DNA of 64,000 nt from Deltaproteobacteria bacterium (GCA_030595125.1 JAUVDV010000007.1:9039-73038), one strand, 5' to 3'. Shown: positions 32,167 to 48,324, numbered from the stretch's first letter. Program-made: numbers and translations. Notes: generated from the sequence alone by a model not told the origin.

Positions 32167-33300
32167 ATGGAAGACAATTCTAGAATAATGATCAAGCGAT
32201 GGCTGTGGGGCCTAGGCATTCTGGTGGTCTTCCTCATCCTCGCCTGGAAGCTGGAGCGCCTGGCCACCCTCGCCATTCTTTCCTTCATTGTGGCGTACGT
32301 CCTCAACCCACTGGTCACGCGCCTCTCGAGGATCAAGTTCATCGGGCGCGCCGCCGCCACCGTCATCACCATGTTCGGCCTCACCGTCGGATTTCTCACG
32401 GTCCTGTTCTTTATCATCCCCGAGGTGTTCGAGGAGTTCAGAGCCTTTATTGGGCGCCTTCCGGCTCTCGCCGACAAGTTCCAGACCACCGCAATCCCCT
32501 GGGTGGAAAGCAACCTGGGTATGGAGGTTCCCGGATCCTGGAACGAGGCTTTCGGCCAGGTGCTGAATAGAGTTGAGAAGGGCGGCTCCGAAATGATCGC
32601 CCCGGCGGCCAGCGTTGCCACCAAGGTGTTCGGCACAACATTCTCCGCGTTTTTCACCATCATCGGCGCCCTCATGTTCCCCCTGTTCCTCTTCTTCCTG
32701 CTCAAGGATTTCCCGGAGATCATAACTGCGGTCGACCGCCTCATCCCCGGCAGGAACCGCGAGACCATTCACTCGCTCGCCAGGGACGTGGACAAGAGCC
32801 TCTCGGCCTTCCTGCACGGTCAGTTCACGGTGATGCTGGTGCTCGGAACCCTGTATTCCATCGGCTACTCGATCGTGGGCGTCCCGGTGGCGATCGGGGT
32901 GGGCCTGCTGACGGGCCTGCTGTGCTTCATACCATACGTGGGCGCCGCTTCCGGTTTCGTCCTCGCCCTTGTGTTGGCCGCCCTGGAGATGAAGGGATGG
33001 GGCTCTATCATCGGGGTTTCCGTGGTGTTCGGAGTGGTACAGCTGCTCGACGCCGTGCTGATCACACCCAAGATTCTCGGTGGAAAGCTCGGCCTCCAGC
33101 CTCTATGGATCATTGTCGCACTTATGGCCGGCGGGGAGTTGTTCGGTTTCCTGGGAGTCCTCCTGGCCGTGCCCACGACAGCGGTCATCAAGATTTTCGT
33201 GGCTCATTCCATCAAGAAATACAAGAAGAGCGCCCTGTTCCTCTCGGGTCGCTCCCCTGAAAAAGAGGGAACGAAACCGGACGGGGATCCCGAGGAATGA
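32167..33300 (+). CDS. AI-2E family transporter (PerM/YdiK/TqsA-like, UPF0118)
   Basis: 8 TM. Conserved ...LSAFLHGQFTVMLVLGTLYSIGYSIVGVP...FIPYVGAASG...VPTTAVIKIF pattern. Confidence 0.8.
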   Translation: MEDNSRIMIKRWLWGLGILVVFLILAWKLERLATLAILSFIVAYVLNPLVTRLSRIKFIGRAAATVITMFGLTVGFLTVLFFIIPEVFEEFRAFIGRLPALADKFQTTAIPWVESNLGMEVPGSWNEAFGQVLNRVEKGGSEMIAPAASVATKVFGTTFSAFFTIIGALMFPLFLFFLLKDFPEIITAVDRLIPGRNRETIHSLARDVDKSLSAFLHGQFTVMLVLGTLYSIGYSIVGVPVAIGVGLLTGLLCFIPYVGAASGFVLALVLAALEMKGWGSIIGVSVVFGVVQLLDAVLITPKILGGKLGLQPLWIIVALMAGGELFGFLGVLLAVPTTAVIKIFVAHSIKKYKKSALFLSGRSPEKEGTKPDGDPEE

Positions 33301-35495
33301 CCCGCCCGTCACCCTGGCGCTGGCCGACATCGATATTGACCGGCGGCGCGGCGGGTGCGGCGATCGGTTTTGGGGAAGGATTTACATGCCACTCGCAGGA
33401 TAAGCTGGCGGCCGGCGTCCTGGACGCGGGGCTGGTCACCGTCCCCGGAATGATAGCAGGCCTTCTTGCGGCCACAGGTGTTTTTCTGCTGGCAGGCGCG
33501 GATCCCATGCGGCGGTTGACGGAAACCAAAAAACGCCTCGCGACCGATGCCAATTTCGCCGCCCTGTTTACCGTCCGATCGATCCTCGTCCAGCTCGCCG
33601 GGTTAGTGTGGCTGACTGCGGCATTTCACGCGGGGCGCATCTCATTTGCGGCCTTTCACCACATGGGCCTGGCTGCGTTCCTCCTGACAGTCGGCCTGAT
33701 CGGCTTGGGCATTTGCATCTTCGTCGTGTCGCAGGCGCTTTGTCGCGTTGCGGTCCCCATGCTTGCTCGGATCGTGCCGGGGAGCGCCATGCGAATTCTT
33801 GCCGTAGCTTCCATCTTCCTTGCGCCCATAATGCTGACAGGTTTCATTGCCCTCTCACCCGTAGACGGATCCGGATGGTTCGGATTTCTGGGCCTGGTCA
33901 AGAGGGATGAGCTCGAGATTCGTCACGTCCTTCTCATGTTCGTTCCCTTTATCGCCGCCGGCGCGGCGTTTGTAGTCACCTCCAATTTTCGTTACCGATG
34001 GCTCATTCCCGTTGTATCGCTGATGACGGGAGCCGGACTCGCCGGAACCTTCATGGCCGCGCGTCAATTCGATTCAGGCGCCGACGCCTGTTCTGCAGTG
34101 GAAGTAGAGACGGCCCTGGGTAGCAGGATTCTCCCCCACGCAAGAGGAATGTTCGACAGGGACGGTGACGGGGCGTCAGCTCTCTTCTGGGGAGGCGATT
34201 GCGACGACGACGATCCCGGGCGCCGGCCGGGAGCCATCGACAGGCCGGGCAACGGCATCGACGAGGACTGCTCCGGAAAGGATGCGGTCCCGCTGCCAAC
34301 CGTGGATCCGGAGCCCGACGAATCTATTAGCGAGGACGACGCCGGAGTTGTTATCCCAGAGGGGCTCTCATTGATAATGATCACTGTGGACGCCCTTCGG
34401 TGGGATGTGGGCTACATGGGGTACGAGCGAGATCTCTCTCCCAATATCGACGAGCTCGCGAGCAGGGGCATCGTGTTCGAGAGGTCTTACGCGCTCTCCT
34501 CCTTCACCGGGAGGTCCATCGGGCCGAGCCTGATCGGACGATATCCGTCGGAGACCTTCTGCAGCGCGAATCATCTGGGGATCTACTACAACAAGAACGA
34601 GATGCTGGCGGAGACCCTGAAGGCCGCCGGCTTTCGGACCGGCGGAGTCCAGGCTCACCCGTACTTCAAGCGCTCGGGCCTCGAGCAGGGTTTCGATCGC
34701 TGGGAGATGGTCATCCCACCAGGTGACAAGGCCCAGGACCAGAAGATCACGAGCCCGGCGATAACGGACAAGCTGGTCGATATTCTCGAGGACGACGAGT
34801 TCACGGGCGACAGGTTCTTCTTGTGGGCCCACATGATGGACCTCCACAAGGCGTACTTGCCCCACAAGGGTTTTGCGAGTTTCGGCGACACGAACCGGGA
34901 CAGGTACGACGGGGAGGTGGCCTTCGTCGATCACCATGTCGGGCGCATCATCGACAAAGTGAAAAAACTCGGTCTTGCCGATCGCACTATCATCATGATC
35001 TCTTCAGATCACGGGGAGGCGTTTATGGAACACGACATCCTGTTTCACGGGCGTCGCCTGTGGGAGGAGGTTGTGCGGGTTCCATGGGTATGGGTGGTGC
35101 CCGGAGTTGAGACCAGGCGCGTGAAGGGGCGTGTTTCTCAGGTGGATCTGGCGGCCACGGTGTACGATCTGCTCGGGGTGAAGCCCCCGGCACATTCGCG
35201 GGGCAAAAGCCTTGTTCCCATGATGATCGGAAAAGAAGAGGGCGATCGCCAAATTTTCCTGGAGCAGCCTCTCGGGGAGTATATGCCGGAGATGTACGCA
35301 ATCATCGACGGTGGATACAAGCTAATCCACACAGTCGCGGGAAACCGCTACCGGTTGTTCAACCTGGAGACCGACCCCGGGGAGAAAACCGACCTCTCCA
35401 GATCGCACCCGGACAAGCTCGCCGCCATGAAGGAAATCTACCAGCAGACCCGCGGATCGCTGGAGATGAACGCGGACATCTGGAAGAGGGACTGA
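33297..35495 (+). CDS. Membrane-anchored sulfatase/alkaline-phosphatase-superfamily protein (N-terminal multi-TM domain, DCDDDD...GIDEDCSG linker, C-terminal sulfatase domain)
   Basis: ATGA overlap with the upstream gene. TM region residues about 60-260. GGDCDDDDPGRRPGAIDRPGNGIDEDCSG. Sulfatase motifs ITVDALRWD...SSDHGEAF. Confidence 0.72.
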   Translation: MTRPSPWRWPTSILTGGAAGAAIGFGEGFTCHSQDKLAAGVLDAGLVTVPGMIAGLLAATGVFLLAGADPMRRLTETKKRLATDANFAALFTVRSILVQLAGLVWLTAAFHAGRISFAAFHHMGLAAFLLTVGLIGLGICIFVVSQALCRVAVPMLARIVPGSAMRILAVASIFLAPIMLTGFIALSPVDGSGWFGFLGLVKRDELEIRHVLLMFVPFIAAGAAFVVTSNFRYRWLIPVVSLMTGAGLAGTFMAARQFDSGADACSAVEVETALGSRILPHARGMFDRDGDGASALFWGGDCDDDDPGRRPGAIDRPGNGIDEDCSGKDAVPLPTVDPEPDESISEDDAGVVIPEGLSLIMITVDALRWDVGYMGYERDLSPNIDELASRGIVFERSYALSSFTGRSIGPSLIGRYPSETFCSANHLGIYYNKNEMLAETLKAAGFRTGGVQAHPYFKRSGLEQGFDRWEMVIPPGDKAQDQKITSPAITDKLVDILEDDEFTGDRFFLWAHMMDLHKAYLPHKGFASFGDTNRDRYDGEVAFVDHHVGRIIDKVKKLGLADRTIIMISSDHGEAFMEHDILFHGRRLWEEVVRVPWVWVVPGVETRRVKGRVSQVDLAATVYDLLGVKPPAHSRGKSLVPMMIGKEEGDRQIFLEQPLGEYMPEMYAIIDGGYKLIHTVAGNRYRLFNLETDPGEKTDLSRSHPDKLAAMKEIYQQTRGSLEMNADIWKRD

Positions 35496-36615: not shown

Positions 36616-36700
36616 GGTTCTCCCTTCATTTCGGCAGAACACTATATCCAGAACAACGAAGAAACGCGAATCGTTGATGGTTTCGTGCTAGAAACGCTTC

Positions 36701-38944
36701 ATGAAGCGCGAGATCGCAGGCGGCCTGATTGCCGGAGCTACCGGGGCGTTGATCGTCTCTATCGTCGAGCCGCTGCTCGGTGAGGGCGCGCCGCTCTTTG
36801 CATCCATTGCCGTGGCGTCAGGCCTTAACCTTCCCGTGGGCCTCTTGACGGGTCTTGTCCTGGTGCTGGTTCGCGCGCTCGCGCCGGAGGGTTGCAAGCC
36901 GTCCGACTGGATTCGCACGCTCGCCTCCCGGGATAACGCGGGCGCCGCCGCCCGGATCCTTGGCGTGGGCCTGGGGTCTCTCGCGTTGTTCCCGGTGTAC
37001 TACCGGATGATCTTCTTTTTCCTCACCGGCTTTCACCACCACGGCCTCGCCGCACTTGCCCTTTCTGTCTCTTCACTGCTTCTGACCGCGATCGCCGTCC
37101 TCATGGGCGTGAGGCTCGTCTCCTGGATGACCGTGCTCATCTCGCGATCCCCCGGGTTTCTCGGGGTTATTCGACGCCCCGCCGTCTGTCTGGCGGTTGT
37201 CGTCGCGGCATGGACCGCAGCCCTCGCTCCCCCGCTGCACACGGGATCCGACGCTACGGGCATCTTCGGCTTCGTGGGTTTTTTGATGAAGGACGGCCTC
37301 GGTGCGGGTCCTCTTTTCTCATGGATCGTCCTGACGACGATTGCCATTGCCATCCTCTGGCCTCTTCTCAAGCGGGATCGCGTGTGGCTCGTCCCGGCGG
37401 CCGGCGCCTGTCTTTTACTCGGCTTCCTGGGCCCCGTCTGGGCCGGTTCGATGATCGCGCACACTCCGCAAACCCTGGACAGGATCGACTCCGCAGGCGG
37501 GATGTCTCCGATGATCGGCAAGATCATCCGCAAGCTGGGAGACGGTGACGGCGACGGCCATGCCCGCTGGATGGGTGGCCTGGATTGCAACGACGAGGAT
37601 CCGTCCATCCGCCCGGGCGCACGGGAGATCCCGAACAATGGTGTAGATGAGGACTGCTCCGGCGCCGACCTGGATCTCGACGAGCTTCGCGCCGCCGCCT
37701 CGGGTGGTTCTGCCGGGGCCACGGGGGAGGGGACAACCTCCTTGAAACGCCCGGATCTGCCGAAAGACGTCTCCCTCTTCTTCCTCACGGTGGACGCGCT
37801 GCGCTGGGACGGGCCGGGGTTCATGGGCTACGACCGCCCGGTGACGCCGAACCTGGACAGGCTTGTGAAAAACGGAACCATCTACGATCGCGCCTACGCG
37901 CTGGGATCGTACACCGGCCAGTCCATACCCGCCGTGTTGACGGGCAAGTATGTCTCGGAGTTATTGAGGAACGACAAGCACGAGCTGCGCGTGTCGGGCA
38001 AGGAGAAATTTGCCGCCGAGTACATATGCGGCGATAACGTCCGCTGCAACGCCGTCCTCTCGCACTTTCTGTTCAAGCCCCACTACGGCTGGAGCCAGGG
38101 TTTTCAGGAGTGGCGAGTGTCGGGCGCGTCCCCGGAAGGCCCCGGGCATATTGACTCAAAGTACAACTCTCACCTGGTGGCGAATATGGCCATGAAGTGG
38201 TTGAAGGACCCGGAGAACACGAAGGGTCGATTCTGGATATGGACCCACTTCATGGATCCTCACAAGGAATACCTGGACCACAAGGGGTTCAAGCGGTTCG
38301 GAGACGATCGACGATCCCGCTACGACCAGGAAGTACTCTTCACCGATCACCATGTGGGGCGGATGCTCGACTTCTTCATGACCCTCCCCGCGGCGAAGCG
38401 CACAATCTTCATTGTGACCTCGGACCACGGGGAGGCGTTCAACGAGCATGGGCGATGGTGTCACGGCAAGGAGCTGTGGGAGGAAATTGTGCGCGTACCC
38501 TTGGCAGTGGTCGGACCGGGAATTGCCAAAAAGCGGATCGCGCGGCAGACCAGCCACATCGACCTGTTTCCCACCTTCCTGGATATCTTCAACCAGAAGA
38601 TCCCCGACGGTATACACGGAAGAAGTTTGCTGCCCGACTGGGTGGATGGGCAGGAGATCCCGGAGAAACCCATAGTGGTCGACCAGCCGAAGAACCCGTA
38701 CTACGAAACACGGCGAGTGTTCATCAAAGACGGCTGGAAGCTCCATGATCTCCCCGATACGGGCACCCACCGACTCTATCAAATTACCGACGACTACGAG
38801 CGAGGCGATTCCCTGGTAGAGACCGAGCCCGATAAGTTCACCGAGATCAAGGCGGCGTACGACCTCTTCATGGCCACGGAGTTCAAGCCCGTCTCGACTG
38901 TCAATTACGGAGCGGGCGACGTGAACAAGATGCCCCTGCCTTAG
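36701..38944 (+). CDS. Membrane-anchored sulfatase-family protein, paralog of 33297-35495 with the same three-part architecture
   Basis: N-terminal TM domain. GDGDGDGHARWMGGLDCNDEDPSIRPGAREIPNNGVDEDCSG. LTVDALRWD...TSDHGEAFNEHGRWCHG. Confidence 0.72.
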   Translation: MKREIAGGLIAGATGALIVSIVEPLLGEGAPLFASIAVASGLNLPVGLLTGLVLVLVRALAPEGCKPSDWIRTLASRDNAGAAARILGVGLGSLALFPVYYRMIFFFLTGFHHHGLAALALSVSSLLLTAIAVLMGVRLVSWMTVLISRSPGFLGVIRRPAVCLAVVVAAWTAALAPPLHTGSDATGIFGFVGFLMKDGLGAGPLFSWIVLTTIAIAILWPLLKRDRVWLVPAAGACLLLGFLGPVWAGSMIAHTPQTLDRIDSAGGMSPMIGKIIRKLGDGDGDGHARWMGGLDCNDEDPSIRPGAREIPNNGVDEDCSGADLDLDELRAAASGGSAGATGEGTTSLKRPDLPKDVSLFFLTVDALRWDGPGFMGYDRPVTPNLDRLVKNGTIYDRAYALGSYTGQSIPAVLTGKYVSELLRNDKHELRVSGKEKFAAEYICGDNVRCNAVLSHFLFKPHYGWSQGFQEWRVSGASPEGPGHIDSKYNSHLVANMAMKWLKDPENTKGRFWIWTHFMDPHKEYLDHKGFKRFGDDRRSRYDQEVLFTDHHVGRMLDFFMTLPAAKRTIFIVTSDHGEAFNEHGRWCHGKELWEEIVRVPLAVVGPGIAKKRIARQTSHIDLFPTFLDIFNQKIPDGIHGRSLLPDWVDGQEIPEKPIVVDQPKNPYYETRRVFIKDGWKLHDLPDTGTHRLYQITDDYERGDSLVETEPDKFTEIKAAYDLFMATEFKPVSTVNYGAGDVNKMPLP

Positions 38945-38965
38945 TAGGGGGTAGGGAAGAACCGT
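38881..38965 (+). repeat. Direct repeat copy 1: the last 60 bp of the sulfatase gene plus about 25 bp downstream
   Basis: gttcaagcccgtctcgactgtcaattacggagcgggcgacgtgaacaagatgcccctgcc is 60/60 identical to 40108-40167. The next ~25 nt are imperfectly conserved (ggaagaaccgttga). Confidence 0.9.
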
Positions 38966-38989
38966 TGATATATGTCAAGTGGAGGGGCG

Positions 38990-39976
38990 CTATTCGACTC
39001 CGGCCGAGAACTTCATGAACTGCACCCGCTCCCAGGCAGCCGGGTTGTCGGATTCGGCATGGCTCAGCAAACCCCTGAAAGCATCGACAGTCTCGAACTC
39101 GTGCTCCTCCATCCAGGTAAATAGTTGCTGGTTGAGGGTAGTAATGTAGTCGACACCGTTCTTGTACAGGGCGGAGACGACCTGAACGGTGGTCGCCCCT
39201 GCCAGGAGCAGCTTGATAACTGTCGCCGCGTTATGAACCCCTGTGGTAGCGCTCAGATCGCAATCCACCCGACCGTGCAGGAGAGAAATCCACCTCAGTG
39301 GAAGAATGAACTCACCTGGATCGCTCAGGACCGGCCCCTTCTTTAACTCCATGCTATCGATATCGATATCCGTGCTGAAAAAGCGATTAAACAGCGTTAG
39401 AGCTGCAACACCATCTTTGGACAGTTGCCGAGCGGTATTCGCCAGCCCCGAGAAATAGCTGCCCAGCTTGAGGGCCACCGGGATGTCGACGCGATCCCGA
39501 ACGGCCTTCGCGAGATCGCCGTAGAGTTGCTCAATTTGCCCTGCGGTTCGATCTGGATCGGAAGGAAGAACAAATGCGTTGAGCTCCAGGGCGTGGGCTC
39601 CCGCCGATTCGAGCCGCTTCGCGAAATCCGGCCACGCAGCGGCGGAAACACAGTGCACACTGGCGATGACAGGGATTTCCACCTTCTTGCGCGTTTCATC
39701 CACCAGCTTGAGGTATCTGGAAACCTCGTTCTCCCGAGTGTAAGCCCGTGTGTACTGAAGCGCCTCGGGATGCCACAGGCTCTCTTCCGCCGCAGATATC
39801 TCCGATTCAGTTTCGTGGGCTATCACCTCCTCGAAAATCGATTTGAGCACGACAGCACCGGCACCCGCCTGGGCGCACTTTTCCACGCCTTCGATATTCC
39901 TTGTGAGCCCGCAACTACCCACAATAAGAGGACTGTCGAGCTCCATGCCCATGTAAGTGGTTTTTAATGTTTTCAT
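38990..39976 (-). CDS. Dihydroorotate dehydrogenase-like (PyrD/PreA-family TIM-barrel flavoprotein)
   Basis: MKTLKTTYMGMELDSPLIVGSCGLT...GAGAVVLKSI...IPVIASV...LELN.S.P......VALKL, the DHODH-like pattern. The start is tentative. Confidence 0.58.
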   Translation of the reverse strand: MKTLKTTYMGMELDSPLIVGSCGLTRNIEGVEKCAQAGAGAVVLKSIFEEVIAHETESEISAAEESLWHPEALQYTRAYTRENEVSRYLKLVDETRKKVEIPVIASVHCVSAAAWPDFAKRLESAGAHALELNAFVLPSDPDRTAGQIEQLYGDLAKAVRDRVDIPVALKLGSYFSGLANTARQLSKDGVAALTLFNRFFSTDIDIDSMELKKGPVLSDPGEFILPLRWISLLHGRVDCDLSATTGVHNAATVIKLLLAGATTVQVVSALYKNGVDYITTLNQQLFTWMEEHEFETVDAFRGLLSHAESDNPAAWERVQFMKFSAGVE

Positions 39977-40107
39977 GAAGGAAAGATAACCCCAGCGCCG
40001 CTCAAAGGAAACCCTGAATGGGGTCAGGCCTGGAATGGGGTGGAAGGTTTCATGGCGATTCGGGTACGATGTTGCACTTCTCAATGACTCCCACTCCTGC
40101 AACCAGG

Positions 40108-40192
40108 GTTCAAGCCCGTCTCGACTGTCAATTACGGAGCGGGCGACGTGAACAAGATGCCCCTGCCGCCGGGTTACGGAAAGAACCGTTGA
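40108..40192 (+). repeat. Direct repeat copy 2 (duplicate of the sulfatase 3' end), at the left boundary of the low-GC island
   Basis: Identical 60-mer plus the imperfect tail gg-aaagaaccgttgaca. Confidence 0.9.
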
Positions 40193-40223
40193 CAAGTATA
40201 GCTTTAACCCTTTTGTTATTCGT

Positions 40224-41186
40224 TTACGCCCCCCCAGCAATACTGTTTAGGATAATGTCCCTTATAAAAATGTCCTTTCCAGTAATTACATCCACAACTG
40301 GCAAGTGCCTTATTAATTCTATGCGATTCCTTCCCCCTATATGCGACAAAGAACCATCCTTATTGCGCGATTCTCTAATATGACCCTCAATATATCCTGA
40401 CTTTGCTGTTAATACTTTAAATTTATTAGATAAATCCTTTCTTACGAAAAAAGCATTACTTCCCGCACTATTTGATCCTACAAAATCATATCCCTTTTTC
40501 TCTGCCAGATAACATAGTGCCGGCAATGAGGCGCCATAATACAGATTAGAATAATGGGCTTTTGTGCGTACAAAGCACGGATCATACGGAATAGTTACAG
40601 CTTTCACATTACCAAATACATTGTTATATTCACAGATAATGATTATGGGTTGCACAACATCAATGGCATCCCAGACCCAGTAGTCATTTCCATCTATATC
40701 AATACTCAACAATCCTATATCACCTTTAAAGCCGCTCATCTCAATAATATTGTTTATATTTTCTCTTGTAATGAAATGACTCTCCGCTGTTAACTCATAT
40801 TTCCAATATATATTATTTTTCTTGACGCGCTCAATATTTTTCTCCGAGCCATCAAATATCAAACCCTTCCAGTTATTATTCATCAATAAGAAACGTGTAT
40901 TTGCCTCCCTATAATCTTCAACACCAAACTCAATGAATGTCTTCTTTTTTTCTATTGAGATTTGATTAATTAAATATTGTATAATTCCATCTTCTCCCCA
41001 TTGGGAAAAAACCTTAAATTCTACCTCACTAAGCGAATTTATTGAACCTAATTGTTTTATCCTGCCAATATGGAGGCCTGCAGTAAGGAATAAGTTGGCT
41101 TCCAAATCACCTCGAAGTTCTCTATTAATAAAAGTTCGATATTTGGATGACAATTTTGAAAGTAATTTACTAATATCGCTAATCAT
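40224..41186 (-). CDS. Hypothetical protein of the low-GC glycan cassette. Possible sugar-modifying enzyme.
   Basis: 320 aa, GC about 35%. Motif FSQWGEDGII. I cannot place the family from memory. Confidence 0.45.
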   Translation of the reverse strand: MISDISKLLSKLSSKYRTFINRELRGDLEANLFLTAGLHIGRIKQLGSINSLSEVEFKVFSQWGEDGIIQYLINQISIEKKKTFIEFGVEDYREANTRFLLMNNNWKGLIFDGSEKNIERVKKNNIYWKYELTAESHFITRENINNIIEMSGFKGDIGLLSIDIDGNDYWVWDAIDVVQPIIIICEYNNVFGNVKAVTIPYDPCFVRTKAHYSNLYYGASLPALCYLAEKKGYDFVGSNSAGSNAFFVRKDLSNKFKVLTAKSGYIEGHIRESRNKDGSLSHIGGRNRIELIRHLPVVDVITGKDIFIRDIILNSIAGGA

Positions 41187-41198
41187 TTTACATCCTAA

Positions 41199-42464
41199 CT
41201 ATAAGATCGGCATCGCATTTATTATATCTTGATCTTCTTCTGACAATTCTACTCCCAATATTTTTCGATAATATGCTCGGAAATGGCGGCAAGTACGCTC
41301 CCATGTAAACCCATTTACATTTAGTTTTCCCTTTATAGACAGTTTTTCTCTTAATTTATCGTCTAACCATAATGTTTTAATGGCATTGGCAATACTTTGC
41401 TTGTCATAAGGGTCAAAGACCAGCGCTGCATTGTCTGCTTGTGCTGGAAGTGAAGTAACATTAGAACAAGCAACTGGCGCACCTGCATAAAAGGCCTCCC
41501 ATAGAGGAAAACTTGCTGCTTCAAATTTTGTCGGTATAATTACACAGCGGCATAATCTATAAAGTGCCTGTAACTCCCGTGGGGACACAAACCCTAAAAA
41601 TTTAACCTGATCATCCATTCTATATTTTTTGATAGCTTCCTGTATTCTAAGGTAAAATACATTTTTATGTCCAGAAAAAACAAGAGGTATTTTAATATCT
41701 AGTTCATCTCGCAAAGATGCCACTGCTTCAATTAAAGTAATGTGATTTTTATGCTCCCATGTTTGTGCAGGATAAAAAACAAAATCAGTCTGAAGTGCAT
41801 ACTTCTTTTTGGTGTCACATAAATCATCTTCTGTTGGCATTGGATACCCTACAGTGGGTGGCGCCAAAGGAATTACTTGTACCTTTTGATTTTGTAAGCC
41901 ATACTGAATTATTAAATCTTTTTTTGTCCATGTAGATACCACAGCAACTATTTTTGCTTGTTCACAAAATTTTCTGTATTGCACCTCTCGATTCAAATAC
42001 TGCCACTTGCTGAAAAATTCAGGCAAATGAATATGCTGAAGATCATGTGGATGATAGATGCTTGGCACATCTGTTAAAAATGCACCCTGTGATACAAAAT
42101 GAATTAAATTGATACCATGTTTTTCGATTAGACCGTCGGAACAGGCTATCTTAATCGCCCTGCTACCAATGATTGTGTATTGTGCAGACTTGATGAAACG
42201 CCATATTTTATTTGTAATTGGATATCGCTTGCTTATTCTGGTTTTCCAATGCGGAACAGAAGGGTTACTACGGCAAGTTATTATTTCACATGACCCATGA
42301 GTATAATTCTCCAACCAATTTTGAGACTCTGGATAAGTAAGAAAATAATATTTCTCATCGCCATCTACTAATTTTGAGAAACCTTGAGCCAGGCCAATAA
42401 CAACCTGCTCAACACCGCCGGATTTACCGGGTTCAACTCGAGCGTCTATGCAGATTTTTGGCAC
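41199..42464 (-). CDS. Glycosyltransferase family 4 (GT-B, RfaB-like)
   Basis: C-terminal GT4 signature PTKFEAASFPLWEAFYAGAPVACSNVTSLP. 421 aa. Confidence 0.78.
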   Translation of the reverse strand: MPKICIDARVEPGKSGGVEQVVIGLAQGFSKLVDGDEKYYFLTYPESQNWLENYTHGSCEIITCRSNPSVPHWKTRISKRYPITNKIWRFIKSAQYTIIGSRAIKIACSDGLIEKHGINLIHFVSQGAFLTDVPSIYHPHDLQHIHLPEFFSKWQYLNREVQYRKFCEQAKIVAVVSTWTKKDLIIQYGLQNQKVQVIPLAPPTVGYPMPTEDDLCDTKKKYALQTDFVFYPAQTWEHKNHITLIEAVASLRDELDIKIPLVFSGHKNVFYLRIQEAIKKYRMDDQVKFLGFVSPRELQALYRLCRCVIIPTKFEAASFPLWEAFYAGAPVACSNVTSLPAQADNAALVFDPYDKQSIANAIKTLWLDDKLREKLSIKGKLNVNGFTWERTCRHFRAYYRKILGVELSEEDQDIINAMPIL

Positions 42465-42922
42465 AGTCTAAACGTACCTATAAGCTCTTCATCGTTCAGC
42501 TGTTCAAAACTATAGCCAAAACTTTTATACATTTTTAAAGCTACTTCGTTGTCTTTGTATACCTTCAGTCTGACAATTTGAGCTTTTTTATTGCGGGCTA
42601 CATCATGAAGATATTGTATTAGCAATTTTCCTGCCCCCTTACCTCTTTTTTGGGGTGATATTGCAATCCCAAGGAATGGCACTTCATATCCCTCATCCCA
42701 ACCTCTTAATATGCCATAACCAATAATTTTGTTTTCATGCGTCATTACGCAATATATATCTTTACCTTTATAATTGACTACATTAAAGGCTTCTTTTTTA
42801 GTCAGAGGATGTGGATGAAAAAATTTATCATCACCAGAAGCTCTTAACTCCAAAAAATAATTGAATAATGCATCGCCCCATGAGGGTGACAAGTGTCTAA
42901 TTTCCAAAGAAGATGAGCACAT
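42446..42922 (-). CDS. GNAT-family N-acetyltransferase (WecD-like)
   Basis: 158 aa. Acetyl-CoA-binding motif-like ISPQKRGKGAGKLLI. Overlaps its neighbours. Confidence 0.7.
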   Translation of the reverse strand: MCSSSLEIRHLSPSWGDALFNYFLELRASGDDKFFHPHPLTKKEAFNVVNYKGKDIYCVMTHENKIIGYGILRGWDEGYEVPFLGIAISPQKRGKGAGKLLIQYLHDVARNKKAQIVRLKVYKDNEVALKMYKSFGYSFEQLNDEELIGTFRLCQKSA

Positions 42923-44046
42923 TAATGGTTGTCACTATAGTTTCTAATTATCTGTGATATTTCTGAAATATTATCATCCCTTAAATCAGCGTATGTAGGC
43001 AAATTCATTCCTGAAAAACTTAATTTACACGTAACTGGTAGTACCTCATTTCTACACTTAGACTCTTCCCGAAACGGTGGCAAAGTATGCAACGGAACAA
43101 AAAAAGGTCGAGTATCAACTCCTTTCTCTGCAAGAAATTCCATTAACTCATCTCGGGAACGTCCATAACTTTCTTGATCAACGGTGATACAAAACAACCA
43201 CGGCGCAGGATCTGCCCATTCTGCAAAGGGCTGAAATCCGATTCCGGGAATATCCCGAAGTAATTCACGGTAGGTCTTAAATATCTCCATTCTTCGTGCA
43301 ATTATTTCTTCAGAACGTTCCAACTGAGCACAAAGGATTGCGCAGGCAATATTTGTTAGGCGAAAATTGTATCCCGTGACGGGGAAATAATATTGTCTTA
43401 TGGGATCCATGCCTTGTCCACGCAAGGTTCTGGCTCGAACCGCCAATTGTTTATCGTGAAGAGCAATTGCTCCGCCTTCGCCACAAGTGAGGATCTTGTT
43501 GCCATAGAATGAAAAAGTTCCAATCTGTCCCAATCCCCCTACAGGTATGCCCTTATATTTTGCAAAATGTGCCTCAGCAGCATCTTCTACAACCCATAGG
43601 CCATGAACAGCTGCAATGTGATTAATTGCATCCATATCTGCAGGATGACCATACAAGTGGACGGCTATAATCCCCTTGGTACGACGGGTTATGTTTTCCT
43701 CTAAAAGATTCGGATCAATACACCAGGTATCTGGATCAATATCCACAAAAACAGGCTCAGCGCCTACATAGCGCACCGCATTTGCGGTGGCAATATAAGT
43801 TAACGAAGGAATAAGAACCTCATCTCCAGGCCGGACATCTAAAGCAAGCAACGCAAGATGCAAAGCAACAGTTCCGTTACATACACTCAGCACATGATCT
43901 GTATCGCACTTGTTTGCAAACTCTTCTTCAAATTGATCTATGTATGCCCCAGTAGATGAAATCCAAGTGCTTTCGATAGCATCGGATACATATTTATTTT
44001 CATTTCCTGACAAGTCAGGAATTGCTACTGGTATTTTAGTCACCAA
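42922..44046 (-). CDS. DegT/DnrJ/EryC1/StrS-family PLP-dependent sugar aminotransferase (WecE-like)
   Basis: LSVCNGTVALHLAL...GDEVLIPSLTY.AT.NA...GA.PVFVDID...FSFYGNKILTCGEGGA. Confidence 0.85.
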   Translation of the reverse strand: MVTKIPVAIPDLSGNENKYVSDAIESTWISSTGAYIDQFEEEFANKCDTDHVLSVCNGTVALHLALLALDVRPGDEVLIPSLTYIATANAVRYVGAEPVFVDIDPDTWCIDPNLLEENITRRTKGIIAVHLYGHPADMDAINHIAAVHGLWVVEDAAEAHFAKYKGIPVGGLGQIGTFSFYGNKILTCGEGGAIALHDKQLAVRARTLRGQGMDPIRQYYFPVTGYNFRLTNIACAILCAQLERSEEIIARRMEIFKTYRELLRDIPGIGFQPFAEWADPAPWLFCITVDQESYGRSRDELMEFLAEKGVDTRPFFVPLHTLPPFREESKCRNEVLPVTCKLSFSGMNLPTYADLRDDNISEISQIIRNYSDNH

Positions 44047-44960
44047 AATAATTTCCTCAACCTTCTGAATTGAGTTTTAAAGCTGTTTGTTTTTGAACGC
44101 TTCTTTTTATAAAAACTAATTATCATTTCCCTTGCATGAGTATTCTCTACAATATCAATTGTAACTAGGTTCACTTGATGATCAAGAGATAGTACCATAT
44201 CATAGTAACTATTTTTAACACAATGAGTTCCACTTCCGTCGTGGCCAATATTTCTCACCAAGCTTTTCCCAGGCATTAAGTGTAGCTTTTTATTTATAAA
44301 GTTAGATGCATACCATCTTATTGCCCAGGAATCAATTTTCCCATCAATTTGATTAAGTAACATACTATAAAAAGAGAAAGTTCCATCAAGATCAAACTGT
44401 TTCTTTTTTTTACTGCGATTTATTTCAAATAATAGCCGGTTGGCATCTTTTTCAAAAGAATTCCATGTTTTTTCCCAAGTAGCCCACCCCCAGCTACTCC
44501 CCTTTTCTAAAAAAAAGTTTTCAGGCAAACCAACTATCGGTTCAATAAAACCACTTATTGATGCGATATTATCATTATTAGCATATTTGTTCAGAGCATC
44601 ATTCATAAATCTCAAGAAATATGGACTGGTTACCAGATCATCCTCAAGGACAATGACTCTCCCATATTTGTTAACTACCTTGCTAACGCCATCAATAATA
44701 GAATCTGCCAGCCCCAGATTTTTTTCTCCAATTCGGATGGTCACTGTTTTAAATCCATCAATAGTGTGAATATACTTCCTCACCTTTTGAACAGCTTCTT
44801 CACTTTGCTCGTCTTTGGGGGCATCTGAATAGATGAAAAGGTCACTTCGATCGGACAGCTCATTCTTCTGCAAAGTTTCAACAGTTTGTTGCGTATGCCA
44901 GGGGCGGTTGTATACAAAGAGAACTATTGGGGCTAATTCCATCTTGTACTCTTTCATCAT
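44040..44960 (-). CDS. GT-A fold glycosyltransferase (family 2-like) with a DxD motif
   Basis: PIVLFVYNRPWHTQQTVETL, then VIVLEDDLV (DxD). Low GC, no SD (consistent with a Bacteroidota-like donor). Confidence 0.6.
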   Translation of the reverse strand: MMKEYKMELAPIVLFVYNRPWHTQQTVETLQKNELSDRSDLFIYSDAPKDEQSEEAVQKVRKYIHTIDGFKTVTIRIGEKNLGLADSIIDGVSKVVNKYGRVIVLEDDLVTSPYFLRFMNDALNKYANNDNIASISGFIEPIVGLPENFFLEKGSSWGWATWEKTWNSFEKDANRLLFEINRSKKKKQFDLDGTFSFYSMLLNQIDGKIDSWAIRWYASNFINKKLHLMPGKSLVRNIGHDGSGTHCVKNSYYDMVLSLDHQVNLVTIDIVENTHAREMIISFYKKKRSKTNSFKTQFRRLRKLFW

Positions 44961-45435
44961 AGCAAATATCGGAAAAACCACTAAATGCTTGGGTATAGCT
45001 TGTTAGATGCCTCAGATACCTGTCTGTTTGGTGGTGTTTAGGCAGTTAAAATCCAGAAACAACACCGCTGTTTTTAGCGGATGCGGCGGAATAAACGTAT
45101 TTGATGAACTATTTTGCACATCGCCCTCTATTTAAAACTCAATAATTTAGAACTCAAAAATCTTTCAAAATACACAATAGTCTTTACAAGCCCATCTTTC
45201 AGCTTGATCTCCGGCTAACAATCCGGCTCCTCCTTTGCCACGATGATATAATGGGAGTCTTTTTCACGATAATACCTCTTTAATATCCATTCTTCGGAAG
45301 CACGTAGCCCGTATTAAGATATGTCATTATTGACAAACTACTGTCTAAAACAGCTTTTCAGCTGAGAAATGTTAAAATTGACACCTTCGATTAATGGCAA
45401 AATGCCATCGCTAAACACCAAAGGAGGGCACAGCG

Positions 45436-45981
45436 ATGGTACCACGAACAGCGAGAATCTTCAGTCAACTTCTAAAAATATTCCCGCAGACCGAGTTCGC
45501 GAAAATCGTAAGGAAACACGGGGCCGAGAGCCACTCCAAGGGTTTCACGAGCTGGTCCCAGTTTGTCTCGATGCTGTTTTGCCAACTCGCGGGGGCGGAG
45601 TCGCTGCGCGAGATCTGCACCGGGTTGGGTTGTTGCCTCGGAAAACGGCGACACCTGGGCGTGAACACGCCTCCCAACAAGTCAACGTTATCGTACGCCA
45701 ACGCCCACAGGCCCGCCGCGATGTTCGAGGAGCTGTTCGTGAACACAATCGCACGTTTCAGATCTCTGGGCGAGTTGGGTCCCGGGAAGTACAAGTTCCG
45801 GTTCAAGAACAAGCTGTACAGCATGGACGCCACGGTCATCTCGCTGTGCCTGTCAATGTTCCCTTGGGCCAGGTACCGCACCGCCAAGGGCGGCGTGAAG
45901 GCTCACGTTCTCATCAGCCACAGCGATTACATGAACCCGCCCCTACTCGGGTACGATGTTGCCCCATTCGGGCTCGGATGA
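45436..45981 (+). pseudogene. Truncated IS4-family (DUF4372-type N-terminus) transposase fragment, an IS remnant
   Basis: 181 aa FSQLLKIFPQTEFAKIVRKHGAESHSKGFTSWSQFVSMLFCQLAGAESLREICTGL...TLSYANAHRPAAMFEELF matches the N-terminal region of IS4-family transposases. It lacks the DDE catalytic part and ends inside the neighbouring gene's 3' end. Confidence 0.6.
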
Positions 45982-48324
45982 CGGCGCCTCGCCGTCGTAT
46001 TCCTCGTCGTCTTCAGGCAGCACCCGGATCCCGCTTCGGCTGATGGGTATCCTCGATTCCGGAAGAGGATCTCCCTCGTAGTAGAACCGGAGTTCCTGGT
46101 TCAGCCCCTCCGCAAGCTCCGCCCGGTCGATTCTCCCGCGATCGAACATGGTTTTCATCACCCGGTGCAGGGAGTTCATCTTGCGCTCGGACACCTGGTT
46201 TCGCACGTAGGTTCCGTGGCGGGTTATCGGGCTGGGCAGAAGCTTGATCAGGAAGACCGACTCCACGAGGTTGAGCTCGTATGGCTCCCGTCCGAAGTAA
46301 TGGTTTGCCGCCTCCTTGATTCCGTACAGAGACGGGCCGAATTCGATGACGTTGAAATACAACTCCAGGATCTCGTCTTTTGTGAACTGGGACTCCAGGT
46401 ACCAGGTGAAGAAGAGCTCCTGCAGCTTTCTGGCCACGGTCCGCTCCCGGTTCATGAAGAGGTTCTTGGCCAGCTGCATGGTGATGGTGCTGGCCCCGTG
46501 GCTCAGGCTGTCCTTCTTGAGGTTGAGCTCGATGGCTCTTCTTATCTCCGGGATGGTCACGCCCCGATGATGCCGAAACTTCCCATCTTCGGTGGTGAGC
46601 GCCGCCTCCACGAGGTACGGCGAGATCGCGGAGTACGGCGTCCATCTGTCCGTCCCCTGACCGCTGATCAGTCGCATGGGTTCTGCGTCGGCGTCATAGA
46701 CGGTGTAAGAGAACGGTCTTCGGAAATCCTGCGGGTTCGGTATAGTGCCGAAGTCTGTGATCTGGCATCGGTTGTCCAGGTTCACCTCCAGCGCCGTTTT
46801 TTTAGGTGCGTCCTCGTCGATGCCCAGTCGCATGTCCAGGGCGAACAACCCCTTCAGCTGTGTCCCTTCCAGGCGAGGCTTCAGCTGCGAGGGCACCGCC
46901 GCGAGGATCTGGCGACAGGCCGTGGGAGGGACGTTACCGGAGATATCAAAGGCGAAACGATCAAACATCACGTTGCCTCGCAGGGTGATCCTGGCAAGCC
47001 CTCGCACCACCATCAACCGCTCCAGGTTGAGCTGCTCCTTGCCCTTCTCGTAGCTCGCCTTGAAATCCAGATGGGCGTCGATATCCTCGATGGGCTCCGC
47101 CGCCAGCTTCGGATGACTCACCTCAACCCCCGAGATCGAAGCCTGGCCTTCGAACGCCAACTTCTCCCCGTTGTCCTGCAACTCCACAACTACGGTTCCG
47201 TCGACCGATGCATGCCCCCACTTTACGTGTTCGTTGGGCACAAACATCTCACCGACGGTCTTCAGCGGCATGTCCGGTATTTCGAAAGAAGCGCTGGGAT
47301 CCCCTTCTTTGGGCCAACTCGCCCCCAACACCCATCGAGCATCGGTTCCCGGCATCTGTCCGCTCGCCCGGATCATCAACGCCTTTTTTCGTGTCATGGA
47401 AATCTCCCCGGATACGCCGGAGAGCTTTACCTCCAGATCCACGTCGCCCGATTTCGACAGCACGCCGGCCGCATCCAGGACGTCTACCTTCACCGAGATA
47501 CCCTCATCATCATCTGCCGGACCGGCCTCCACCGGCTCGGCGCCCCCATCGGTCGTGCCCGGGCCTCCCTGCGAATCAAGCATGCCGAGCGCGCGTGCGC
47601 TATCCCTGGCGTCATTGACGAGTTTTTCAAGATCATTGAAGGCCACGGGCAGATCGAAGCCCGGTTGATTGAGGGAAAGAGATACATGTTCTCTCTCGCT
47701 TCTTATCTGGACCTCGCAGGATTCCCCGACAACAAGATTTTGCCCGAGATGAACCAGCGTGAAATCATCGGTGTTGACTACAGCTCCTCCCCCGTCCGAC
47801 AGCCGCCCGGACAACCCCTCTACAGTCACCGAGAATCTTCCATCATCCGCGACGAGACGACCCGAGACGATGTGGACCTCGGGGATGGATCGCATCGGAC
47901 CGTCGCCTTTCGCCTCCGCGTCCGTTCTGCTGGCAACCCGTTCGATCACCCCCCTCCATTCTGCGGCCGGTGCTCCGTCGAGGGGTTCACCCATCCTGAT
48001 CTCGAGGCCGTCCACCCGGATGCCGGTGAGATCGAGATCTCCCATCAACAACGACCCTACCCGCACCCCGACTCCGAGGCTCTCGATCAGGGCGAGCGGC
48101 CGTGAACCCTCCGTCGACCGGACCTCTACATTTTCGAAAACCACTGAAGAAAGCGAGATGTCTACATCTTCGAAGGATATTCTAACGCCAAGTCGCTCCT
48201 CGACCCTGGGAATCAAGCCCTCGATGATACGCTCGTCGGCCCCGGATTGAAGAAACAGAAGCGCCAGGAGGCCCAGAACGAGCACCAATATGAAGAGGGC
48301 GAGGAGCCAGCGCTTGATACCCAT
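45943..48324 (-). CDS. Large membrane-anchored protein with a C-terminal monofunctional peptidoglycan transglycosylase (GT51) domain and an about 550-aa N-terminal AsmA-like region
   Basis: N-terminal TM LLALFILVLVLGLLALLFL. C-terminal EDGKFRHHRGVTIPEIRRAIELNLK...GASTITMQLAKNLF...RKLQELFFTWYLE...KDEILELYFNVIEFG (GT51 motifs). Confidence 0.72.
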   Translation of the reverse strand: MGIKRWLLALFILVLVLGLLALLFLQSGADERIIEGLIPRVEERLGVRISFEDVDISLSSVVFENVEVRSTEGSRPLALIESLGVGVRVGSLLMGDLDLTGIRVDGLEIRMGEPLDGAPAAEWRGVIERVASRTDAEAKGDGPMRSIPEVHIVSGRLVADDGRFSVTVEGLSGRLSDGGGAVVNTDDFTLVHLGQNLVVGESCEVQIRSEREHVSLSLNQPGFDLPVAFNDLEKLVNDARDSARALGMLDSQGGPGTTDGGAEPVEAGPADDDEGISVKVDVLDAAGVLSKSGDVDLEVKLSGVSGEISMTRKKALMIRASGQMPGTDARWVLGASWPKEGDPSASFEIPDMPLKTVGEMFVPNEHVKWGHASVDGTVVVELQDNGEKLAFEGQASISGVEVSHPKLAAEPIEDIDAHLDFKASYEKGKEQLNLERLMVVRGLARITLRGNVMFDRFAFDISGNVPPTACRQILAAVPSQLKPRLEGTQLKGLFALDMRLGIDEDAPKKTALEVNLDNRCQITDFGTIPNPQDFRRPFSYTVYDADAEPMRLISGQGTDRWTPYSAISPYLVEAALTTEDGKFRHHRGVTIPEIRRAIELNLKKDSLSHGASTITMQLAKNLFMNRERTVARKLQELFFTWYLESQFTKDEILELYFNVIEFGPSLYGIKEAANHYFGREPYELNLVESVFLIKLLPSPITRHGTYVRNQVSERKMNSLHRVMKTMFDRGRIDRAELAEGLNQELRFYYEGDPLPESRIPISRSGIRVLPEDDEEYDGEAPSSEPEWGNIVPE

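Follow-up and report, generated by a model that had tools for sequence, protein, structure and literature searches.

A duplicated sulfatase gene end as the probable scar of two cargo alleles joined in tandem at a variable locus of a deltaproteobacterium

Chromosomal HGT hotspots between conserved core genes are a general concept. The locus described here differs from it in no essential respect, since two syntenic core genes flank a variable segment with foreign low-GC sugar genes and IS debris; it is one example of ordinary genome plasticity, with an unusually legible junction. Homology-facilitated illegitimate recombination (HFIR) during the uptake of foreign DNA is known from Acinetobacter, Streptococcus pneumoniae, and Pseudomonas stutzeri (works cited in PMC5361080) and has also been found when E. 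coli conjugates (PMC3240628). Arrays of orphan 3' regions behind a conserved gene, the outcome of 3'-end (C-terminal) displacement, are described for Rhs, CDI, and T6SS effector-immunity loci (PMC5361080 and works cited there).

The stretch of DNA that was analyzed (the window; 64,000 nucleotides) contains a sulfatase-family gene on the plus strand (36701-38944), the core gene that bounds the variable locus on its left side. It encodes a membrane N-terminus, a MopE motif, and a sulfatase domain (Pfam PF00884, 6.8e-33, and PF11617), and its orthologues in contigs L001, L002, L006, and L008 are 86-97% identical at the nucleotide level. The right core gene is a penicillin-binding-protein (PBP)/transglycosylase gene on the minus strand (45943-48324; PF00912, 6.3e-49) with orthologues in L001, L006, L009, and L014. 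The gap between these convergent genes is a hypervariable cargo site in this uncultured deltaproteobacterial lineage; at least five different cargoes are found there in contigs that are 85-97% identical, or six states if combinations are counted, namely, a lipoprotein gene in L001, at least 7 kb of plus-strand genes in L002, a 300-amino acid gene plus a TonB-dependent receptor in L006 and L007, a DHODH-like gene alone in L009, the DHODH-like gene combined with the L006 cargo in opposite orders in L008 and L004, and 28-nt tandem repeats adjoining the PBP gene in L014. The synteny comparison proposed in the original prediction thereby gave various cargoes following the sulfatase gene; in none of the relatives does the low-GC island of the window lie directly next to it.

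The duplication of the sulfatase 3' end that had been predicted, 60 of 60 nucleotides with an imperfect tail, was recovered by a repeat search and withstood comparison with shuffled sequence. Copy 1 (38881-38940, plus strand) lies within the sulfatase CDS and is identical to copy 2 (40108-40167, plus strand). Both 30-nt halves of the 60-mer occur exactly twice in the window, even with up to 3 mismatches allowed (chance expectation, 0 in 100 shuffles), and the same half searches of the window revealed no third site. Beyond the 60-mer, the tails extend to 38968 in copy 1 and to 40192 in copy 2. They consist of 13-16 diverged bases with a 3-nt length difference, followed by a 15-nt block, GG(G/A)AAGAACCGTTGA, which matches at 14 of 15 positions (38954-38968 versus 40178-40192). 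The two copies differ at 0 of 60 positions in the 60-mer and at 8 of 25 in the tails, and the sulfatase ends of the relatives differ from copy 1 at 3-12 of the 60 positions.

Tail 1 (38941-38968, plus strand) is a DHODH-type ("B-type") sulfatase end with the premature stop CCT TAG TAG ...GGGAAGAACCGTTGA; it is also present in L008 and L009, with one TAG fewer in the tail alignment, the premature TAG being common to all three. Tail 2 (40168-40192, plus strand) is of the ancestral type and would encode PPGYGKNR followed by a stop codon (40190-40192), which is the full-length sulfatase C-terminus as in L002, L006, and L001; the end region of copy 2 is 95% identical to the sulfatase end of L002 over 79 nt. 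The approximately 25 bp that were originally taken to lie downstream of copy 1 are, in fact, ancestrally coding, with the relatives reading through (..MPLPPG[AYV]GKN[RQ], then a stop). Because tail 2 is of the full-length type and tail 1 of the premature-stop type specific to DHODH-type contigs, the two copies derive from different alleles. Copy 2, 5' of which an in-frame TGA is found at 40085-40087, is a non-functional orphan, that is, a pseudogene fragment.

The sulfatase gene is followed by an intergenic flank, TATATGTCAAGTGGAGGGGCG (38969-38989), which includes the motif TGGAGGG at 38980-38986. Over these 7 nt, the flank 3' of the sulfatase gene and the DHODH module overlap, as the homology to L001 stops at 38986 and that to L004 begins at 38980. 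In agreement with the original prediction, the DHODH-like gene (38990-39976, minus strand; 328 amino acids) is the sole CDS between the repeat copies. Its product matches NCBIfam NF005741 (399.5 bits, 1.1e-119) and shares 98% amino acid identity with P0001; a database call of a 364-amino acid DHODH-like protein is likely over-extended into the junction filler described below. The region 5' of the gene (39977-40059, minus strand) is conserved in alignments with L004, L008, and L009. Over positions 36676-40075 of the window, L008 is 96.9% and L009 94.7% identical, and in both contigs the sulfatase gene with tail 1 faces the DHODH-like gene across a junction identical to that of the window, with a single sulfatase end and no copy 2. 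Since they share this arrangement with one sulfatase end, the DHODH-like gene is read as resident cargo, and the allele to which it belongs would, from these comparisons, be the resident one.

A second, shorter duplication had been overlooked. The 16-mer TCGGGTACGATGTTGC occurs twice in the window, where 0.04 occurrences are expected. The right 16-mer (45947-45962, minus strand) comprises the functional last PBP codons (GNIVPE), and the left one (40060-40075) is an orphan PBP 3' end, at which the homology to DHODH-type contigs ends. Flanked by these duplicated last 16 nt of the PBP gene, a 5.9-kb insertion (40076-45946) lies in the 3' end of the convergent PBP gene. It is composed, in order, of a 32-nt filler, ACTTCTCAATGACTCCCACTCCTGCAACCAGG (40076-40107), which marks an illegitimate junction, the 85-nt sulfatase 3' end with copy 2 at the left edge, a sugar-biosynthesis island, and a truncated DUF4372 transposase gene. 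A source of the filler was found neither in the window nor in any compared locus nor in metagenome_contigs. The left junction of the insertion is made up of non-homologous filler, while the right side continues homologously into the PBP gene. There, the native PBP-downstream sequence ..CCGCCCCTAC (45921-45946), shared with L006, overlaps the end of the IS fragment by 13 nt (45921-45933), and the join between the two is, therefore, a microhomology junction. Empty sites are present in L004 and L009, where the region 5' of the DHODH-like gene passes through one 16-mer straight into the PBP gene. These empty sites, the flanking 16-nt duplication, and the fact that copy 2 belongs to the insertion's left edge support the alternative that had been offered originally, a recombination or duplication scar through which a foreign island was inserted.

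Other junctions at this locus look illegitimate too, namely, the TGGAGGG overlap and the 13-nt microhomology in the window, a 16-nt filler in L004, and one of 24 nt in L008. The breakpoint after GTTGC, the end of TCGGGTACGATGTTGC, is the same to the nucleotide in the window and in L008, and the sequence beyond differs. Such an identical breakpoint is not predicted by random illegitimate joining.

The polysaccharide island (40224-44981) begins right after copy 2, as had been predicted, with the GC content falling from 56% to 34-44% there and ranging from 33 to 44% in the island. Its five minus-strand genes encode a 293/320-amino acid unknown protein, a GT4 glycosyltransferase, a GNAT acetyltransferase, a DegT/LegC-type aminotransferase, and a 313-amino acid GNT-I-like protein. 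The island is foreign, because its core (40259-44038) is 84.5% identical to contigs L010-L012 of 38-39.5% GC, in which it belongs to a larger polysaccharide cluster. The independent Logan contig L013 is 100% identical to 40138-44646 and breaks 30 nt inside copy 2. The IS fragment (45436-45933, plus strand; PF14294, 1e-25) encodes residues 1-166 of approximately 398 of a DUF4372 family transposase and is 89% identical to P0308 over residues 1-166; full-length copies of its cluster are found on many contigs of ~1.5 kb. Transposon or IS insertion was rejected as the origin of the 5.9-kb insert. Its ends (ACTTCTCAATG... and ...CCGCCCCTAC) do not form inverted repeats, the transposase ends at residue 166 of 398, and the duplication of 16 bp, compared with target duplications of 2-14 bp, corresponds to the extent of PBP coding homology.

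According to the original prediction, the repeats could be attL and attR of an integration event bracketing an excisable DHODH-like gene. Like an integrase island, the locus has perfect direct repeats over a gene 3' end, which here bracket one gene, and a foreign low-GC island adjoining one repeat; also, the same GTTGC breakpoint in two arrangements hints at site preference. That the 60-85-bp repeats were made by an integrase, with either the DHODH-like gene or the island as an element regenerating the sulfatase 3' end, is nevertheless extremely unlikely. The bracketed gene is resident in relatives, occupying the same site in L008 and L009 without the right-hand repeat, and no relative is seen from which it is absent exactly between the repeats. 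The island itself is not bracketed, its far end being devoid of a 60-mer copy. Moreover, the repeats are not the sole duplication: copy 2 is preceded by the 32-nt filler and the 16-nt fragment of the PBP gene on the other flank, neither of which is a product of att recombination. Neither the 1.2-kb unit nor the island encodes an integrase or recombinase, and none was detected in a Pfam and NCBIfam scan of long ORFs at 21.2-62.9 kb (part of the ORFs of that span), among which the truncated DUF4372 transposase gene is the sole mobile-element gene. The window contains no tRNA gene, there is no Rfam match, a GTTRRRY core is missing, and the repeat copies, folded as DNA on both strands, show no unusual structure (z of -1.05 to +0.5 versus shuffles). 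An integron cassette (attC) was rejected as well, as none of the boundaries GTTCAAG, GTTGACA, and GTTGCAC fits GTTRRRY, the folds of the copies do not stand out from those of shuffles, and no IntI is encoded in the scanned ORFs. The 1227-bp unit might still be excised through homologous recombination of the two 60-bp repeats.

Conservation of both copies in diverged relatives, which was originally held to indicate an ancient and stable arrangement, was seen in 0 of 6 contigs: L001, L002, L006, L007, L008, and L009 are all without a second repeat copy. L004 stops short of the sulfatase end and is uninformative on copy 1. With a probability of about 0.6, the repeat is an orphan leftover of HFIR/3'-end displacement, by which two alternative cargo alleles of a hypervariable locus came to lie in tandem. 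The order of parts is sulfatase with 60-mer and tail 1, DHODH-like gene, and 16 nt of the PBP gene; the 32-nt filler; and sulfatase end with 60-mer and tail 2, island, truncated IS, and PBP gene. The middle scar, consisting of PBP end, filler, and sulfatase end, connects one allele at its right end with the other at its left end. Most likely, DNA would have been exchanged between two strains of one population, one carrying sulfatase-DHODH-PBP and the other sulfatase-island-PBP. This would have required a normal homologous crossover within either of the flanking core genes plus a single illegitimate end-join with filler; no site-specific recombinase would be involved. The DHODH-type parent allele is seen in L009. 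The sulfatase-island parent with tail 2, which was not found among the contigs searched (L013 ends inside the 60-mer), is postulated. The contrast of 0/60 to 8/25 differences is sharper than expected from simple divergence and, therefore, calls for an extra assumption, namely, gene conversion, a crossover where the 60-mer ends, or a donor of nearly identical sequence. The perfect 60-mer would reflect either a very close donor or a later gene conversion between the copies that ended where the tails diverge.

The proposed event resembles HFIR in having one end in a conserved anchor gene and a non-homologous join at the other, with foreign DNA added beside the anchor; the junction is likewise near the homologous region, in this case a few nucleotides inside. 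It differs in that the join includes a 32-nt filler and in that the product keeps the 85-nt and 16-nt duplications of the flanking genes, whereas recipient DNA is deleted in HFIR; also, the event is deduced here from comparative anatomy alone. With the Rhs, CDI, and T6SS loci the locus shares an orphan anchor 3' end with its own stop, which is located 3' of the functional gene and heads displaced cargo, as well as many alternative cargoes in close strains. The anchor is, however, a sulfatase-family enzyme rather than a polymorphic toxin, with no toxin-immunity logic visible, and there is a single orphan of 85 nt instead of a whole toxic domain.

The same final structure would result if pairing in the 60-mer had been the key step, either in a Campbell-type insertion of a small circle or in a tandem duplication with later allele replacement. 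In the circle version, an illegitimate join would have closed a circle of 1227 bp (60-mer, tail 1, DHODH-like gene, PBP 16-mer, and filler), which would then have entered a chromosome with the island directly after the sulfatase gene by RecA-dependent crossover in the 60-bp homology. In the duplication version, the unit from sulfatase end to PBP end would have doubled in tandem, and the cargo of one copy would later have been swapped by homologous recombination. The order of parts is predicted exactly as observed, with copy 2 starting sharply at the filler and the 16-mer lying next to it, and pairing or crossover within the 60-mer would account for the perfect identity of its 60 nt and the sudden loss of identity in the tails. 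These pathways are considered unlikely, however, as two rare events would be needed instead of one and a homology of 60 bp, or of 16 bp in the mirror-image version, supports homologous recombination poorly. Neither the circle nor the sulfatase-island parent has been seen, and the upstream sulfatase and Ldh_2 genes are as close to L008 (96.5-96.9%) as the DHODH module is, so that nothing marks the latter as incoming.

The window stems from an 87-kb contig of a metagenome-assembled genome, and the junction between filler and copy 2 is present in one assembly only. A metagenome assembler might have merged co-existing strains of the sulfatase-DHODH-PBP and sulfatase-island-PBP types, in which case both copies would not be present on any one chromosome; related-strain contigs often stop at the sulfatase 3' end (P0176 and P0177 end at ..PPGYGK), and the break in L013 shows a graph branch inside copy 2. 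Yet a repeat-mediated join would fall at the repeat, whereas the unique 32-nt filler and the PBP fragment found here need real reads. L008, an independent assembly from another sample, has the same kind of stacking with the same 16-mer orphan, and if k-mers of k119-k141 were used, as named in related contigs, single k-mers would span filler, 60-mer, and tail. An assembly chimera is, all in all, quite unlikely.

It is very improbable that an unrecognized site-preferring process shuffles cargo modules at defined points, for which breakage directed by a hairpin of the inverted repeat GAATGGGG/CCCCATTC, an HUH/rolling-circle type element, or an unknown recombinase would be candidates. The exact break nucleotide shared with L008 in spite of different sequence beyond, the 8-nt inverted repeat adjoining the break, the DHODH module flanking the L006-type cargo on one side in L008 and on the other in L004, and the IS remnants at or near the junctions would be compatible with it. 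There are, however, two instances only, the fillers have no common motif (shuffle fractions of ~0.8), the TGGAGGG and 60-mer left-edge junctions lie at other kinds of sequence, and neither a candidate enzyme gene in the scanned ORFs nor an unusual fold was found. The same low probability applies to the notion of the sulfatase-PBP gap as a cassette-like site, where modules (DHODH-like gene, TonB-receptor pair, sugar island) would be joined at defined nucleotides by such a process, with the break after TCGGGTACGATGTTGC that the window shares with L008 as its footprint and the 60-mer as a second site.

The case warns against a common misreading, because the 3' end of a gene duplicated beside a low-GC island does not, on its own, speak for an integrase-driven element. 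If the breakpoint shared with L008 reflected a real site preference, the locus would merit a closer look. As parts of both flanking genes survive in the scar, the event can be retraced nucleotide by nucleotide, and the locus provides a natural and unusually readable example, of modest importance, of foreign genes being added at a variable spot rather than swapped.

The direct duplication of the sulfatase end was confirmed, the 60-mer at 38881-38940 (copy 1) recurring at 40108-40167 (copy 2) with 60/60 bases identical. With up to three mismatches allowed, each of its 30-nt halves is found at these two places of the 64-kb window and nowhere else in it, and shuffled sequences gave no match. The tail following the 60-mer is imperfect, as had been described; 13-16 diverged bases with a length difference of 3 nt are followed by a similar 15-nt block, GG(G/A)AAGAACCGTTGA, with a 14/15 match between 38954-38968 and 40178-40192. 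A whole-window repeat search revealed no third copy at the far end of the low-GC island, and an Rfam scan of 38700-40400 gave no match. Folds of both copies on both strands were nothing unusual in comparison with shuffles (z from -1.05 to +0.5), and the signal for a terminator or promoter role of the repeat was not above shuffle expectation.

Copy 1 is the genuine 3' end of the plus-strand sulfatase-family CDS 36701-38944 (Pfam Sulfatase, 6.8e-33; MopE motif). Relatives were retrieved with the sulfatase and the DHODH-like protein as queries, and in three of these contigs, L001, L002, and L006 (86-90% identical), the sulfatase reading frame continues beyond the 60-mer to the terminus ..MPLPPG(A/Y/V)GKN(R/Q)*, at a conserved ..GAACC(GT/AA)TGA. 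Copy 2 corresponds to this full-length version; its sequence GCC GGG TTA CGG AAA GAA CCG TTG A would encode PPGYGKNR*, and it is 95% identical to the end of L002 across 79 nt. Copy 1 runs into a premature stop, CCT TAG TAG, which is found with a single TAG in the related contigs L008 and L009. Since L008 and L009 share this stop and L001, L002, and L006 read through, the two copies stand for distinct alleles of the sulfatase 3' end. The 25 bp beyond copy 1, originally taken for downstream DNA, are indeed repeated imperfectly; given the read-through in the relatives, they are former coding sequence. Upstream (5') of copy 2 there is no more sulfatase homology and an in-frame TGA is located at 40085-40087, so that copy 2 is an orphan fragment.

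Exact-protein look-ups of the sulfatase and the DHODH-like protein of the window returned no record. The premature TAG is common to the sulfatases of the DHODH type (window 38941-38946, L008, L009), by which the last 8 codons of the relatives are lost, and it is doubled (TAGTAG) in the window. Two further contigs of this sulfatase (JGI, 3.7-3.9 kb; proteins P0176 and P0177) break off exactly at ..MPLPPGYGK; assemblies breaking where the variable region begins suggest strain heterogeneity at the locus in several samples. The sulfatase-family gene 36701-38944 has a paralogue at 33297-35495 (33% amino acid identity); both products are membrane-anchored and carry a MopE-type Cys-rich motif N-terminal to the catalytic domain. 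The two genes are separated by one for an Ldh_2-family dehydrogenase on the opposite strand, and the sulfatase pair is kept in L006.

The sole gene between the copies is, as stated in the original prediction, the minus-strand gene at 38990-39976, which encodes a dihydroorotate dehydrogenase-like protein (NCBIfam NF005741, 399.5 bits). The proposal that attL and attR sites of a site-specific integration flank this gene was not borne out. L008 (ENA ERZ27250555) and L009 (JGI 3300083231) are 96.9% and 94.7% identical to window 36676-40075 and 37473-40075, respectively, and in both, the sulfatase with the premature-stop tail is followed by TATATGTCAAGTGGAGGG and the convergent DHODH-like gene, with the same junction as in the window and a single sulfatase end. 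The presence of this junction in both contigs without a second sulfatase end implies that the DHODH-like gene is resident and was not inserted; neither is this gene a mobile cassette, nor is the repeat an att site. The gene is also found in contig L004, with 97.8% identity. Plasmid and phage collections contained nothing similar to the 1.3-kb DHODH unit, none of the long ORFs scanned with Pfam and NCBIfam in the stretch from 21.2 to 62.9 kb gave an integrase or recombinase, and the window contains no tRNA gene. An integron attC site was considered and rejected, because no boundary had the GTTRRRY core and the fold of the repeat was no different from shuffles. The database protein for this gene, P0181 (364 amino acids), extends over 39977-40084 to a TTG start that falls within the junction filler; this start is probably over-extended, homologues being 320-328 amino acids long.

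The extent of the insertion becomes apparent from the convergent penicillin-binding-protein (PBP)/transglycosylase gene at 45943-48324 on the minus strand, whose last codons, GNIVPE, constitute a 16-mer that occurs twice in the window, at 40060-40075 and 45947-45962 (0.04 expected by chance). In L004 and L009, the upstream region of the DHODH-like gene joins the PBP 3' end directly, via one TCGGGTACGA(T/C)GTT(G/A)C. Homology of the window to L004, L008, and L009 ends at 40075, and homology to L004 and L009 restarts at 45947. Set against the empty sites in L004 and L009, this gap identifies window 40076-45946 as an insertion with copy 2 at its left edge, which upholds the alternative initially offered, a recombination scar through which the island was brought in.

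The insertion begins with a 32-nt filler (40076-40107), for which no source was found, followed by the orphan sulfatase end (40108-40192) and five minus-strand island genes (40224-44981) encoding an unknown 293/320-amino acid protein, a GT4 glycosyltransferase, a GNAT acetyltransferase, a DegT/LegC-type aminotransferase, and a GNT-I-like protein. K-mer and local alignment searches for the filler in the window and all fetched loci gave chance 10-11-mers only. Pattern scans of metagenome_contigs with the filler and a degenerate sulfatase end gave no matches; as the latter pattern should match L009, a known JGI contig, this collection seems to be without the lineage. The low GC content directly after copy 2 was confirmed, dropping from about 56% to 34-44% and rising again to 60% near 45.5 kb. 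Contigs L010-L012, of 38-39.5% GC, match the island core (40259-44038) with 84.5% identity and have it within a larger polysaccharide cluster, so that the island is foreign to the 58-62% GC genome. Next to it lies a DUF4372 IS transposase fragment (45436-about 45933), cut off after codon 166 of about 398 and 89% identical to the database protein P0308. Its 90% cluster includes full-length copies on numerous short contigs (about 1.5 kb), from which it follows that the element is active or recent in the community; a search of viral_contigs returned no full-length copy. The end of the fragment overlaps PBP-downstream sequence in common with L006 (45921-45946; ..CCGCCCCTAC) by a 13-nt imperfect microhomology, which reads CAGCGATTACATG in the window and CAGCGACGACACG in L006.

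The locus is hypervariable. Among contigs whose flanks are 85-97% identical, the interval between sulfatase and PBP has different contents, and allele divergence begins exactly at the stop codons of both core genes. L001 has an LRR-like lipoprotein gene there, L002 a run of plus-strand genes (about 50% GC) spanning at least 7 kb, L006 and L007 a 300-amino acid gene plus a TonB-dependent receptor, and L009 the DHODH-like gene alone. L008 has the DHODH-like gene followed by L006-type cargo, and L004 has L006-type cargo followed by the DHODH-like gene. With the DHODH module right of the TonB-receptor cargo in L004 (reverse strand, 1260-1310; L006, 15225-15310) and left of it in L008, the two contigs are reciprocal stackings of the same two alleles. 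The L004 junction consists of a 16-nt filler plus about 13 nt that resemble the flank downstream of the sulfatase. In L014 (GCA_030621295.1, JAUXIA010000046.1), whose PBP gene is 97% identical to that of the window, tandem repeats of 28 nt follow straight after the PBP stop; at 4619-4727 there are 3.9 copies of the unit GATGACGTTCGACGCTTGTCCGCCGTCG, within which the contig stops, and the 9-mer TGTCCGCCG of this unit is present at the L004 junction, too.

The repeat is best explained as a recombination scar at which two cargo alleles were stacked at a horizontal-transfer hotspot. With S60 and P16 denoting the sulfatase 60-mer and the PBP 16-mer, the layout of the window is S60-tail 1-DHODH-P16 / filler / S60-tail 2-island-IS'-P16-PBP, that is, two complete units from sulfatase end to PBP end with different cargoes and one non-homologous junction. 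In the simplest scenario, DNA of a DHODH-type strain and DNA of an island-type strain would have been combined through a single homologous crossover, located in one of the flanking core genes, and a single illegitimate join containing filler. As the premature TAG is shared by the window, L008, and L009, the truncation predates the stacking and is tolerated. L008 resembles the window about as closely in the upstream genes as in the DHODH module, and divergence profiles of the sulfatase-DHODH region and the PBP gene showed no clear switch that would mark the crossover point and, with it, the resident allele. Other untidy junctions of the locus are the sulfatase/DHODH join with its TGGAGGG overlap of 7 nt, the fillers of 16 nt in L004 and 24 nt in L008, and the IS/PBP-downstream microhomology. 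The same end structure could arise if a circle of 1227 bp integrated within the 60-mer, or from tandem duplication and subsequent allele replacement; we consider both routes improbable.

An assembly chimera of two strains, joined between filler and copy 2, would be conceivable for a window that is part of a metagenome-assembled genome (contig of 87 kb). The Logan contig L013 (SRR18920792), 100% identical to 40138-44646, stops 30 nt inside copy 2, as expected of a branch in a k=31 graph; it thus confirms the junction of tail 2 with the island, but not that of filler with copy 2. However, the join consists of unique filler with a PBP fragment alongside and not of a shared repeat, and comparable stacking is present in L008, which comes from a different sample and a different assembler; both points make a chimera unlikely.

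Under the stacking model, the complete identity of the 60-mers calls for comment, for the window copies have 0/60 differences there and about 8/25 in the tails, and the 60-mers of L008, L002, L009, L006, and L001 differ from the window at 3, 3, 5, 6, and 12 positions, respectively. Possibly, a donor from within the population carried an identical 60-mer, the homologous step occurred inside the 60-mer itself, or later gene conversion between the copies homogenised the stretch similar enough to pair. Recombination between the 60-bp repeats could, as a prediction, delete the DHODH unit, restoring a full-length sulfatase beside the island.

Homology to the DHODH-type PBP end is lost at the identical nucleotide in the window (40075/40076) and in L008 (4755/4756), after ..GATGTTGC (TCGGGTACGATGTTGC). 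Beyond this point, the window continues with the 32-nt filler and the sulfatase end, and L008 with 24 nt and the L006-type 300-amino acid gene; no motif is common to the fillers. The reverse complement of the L008 filler (4756-4779) has a 16/19 match to window 45845-45863, in the CLSMFPW region of the IS transposase. This filler may be a captured IS fragment, although 1/200 shuffles reached the score before correction for about 18 comparisons, and the match is statistically weak after multiple testing. An 8-nt inverted repeat abuts the break, with GAATGGGG at 40034-40041 and, in intact PBP genes, CCCCATTC directly following the 16-mer; this repeat could mark a hotspot of breakage, but folding revealed no significant structure. 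Its arms, at 40034-40041 and 45962-45969 in the window, are present in L004 and L009, too, and GAATGGGGT occurs twice upstream of the DHODH-like gene (40015-40023, 40034-40042). The coincidence of breakpoints could reflect a breakage hotspot, shared ancestry with subsequent rearrangement, or chance; a site-preferring cassette-joining process at the locus is highly improbable.

Homology-facilitated illegitimate recombination (PMC5361080, PMC3240628) follows the same logic of a homologous anchor and an illegitimate join. Displacement of 3' ends has been put forward to account for the effector-immunity arrays of Rhs, CDI, and T6SS loci (PMC5361080, PMC3240628), in which orphan 3' ends of a conserved gene head displaced cargo, and the logic of the window is alike. 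The proposed stacking of two cargo alleles between the sulfatase and PBP genes is a further case of an already known kind of event.
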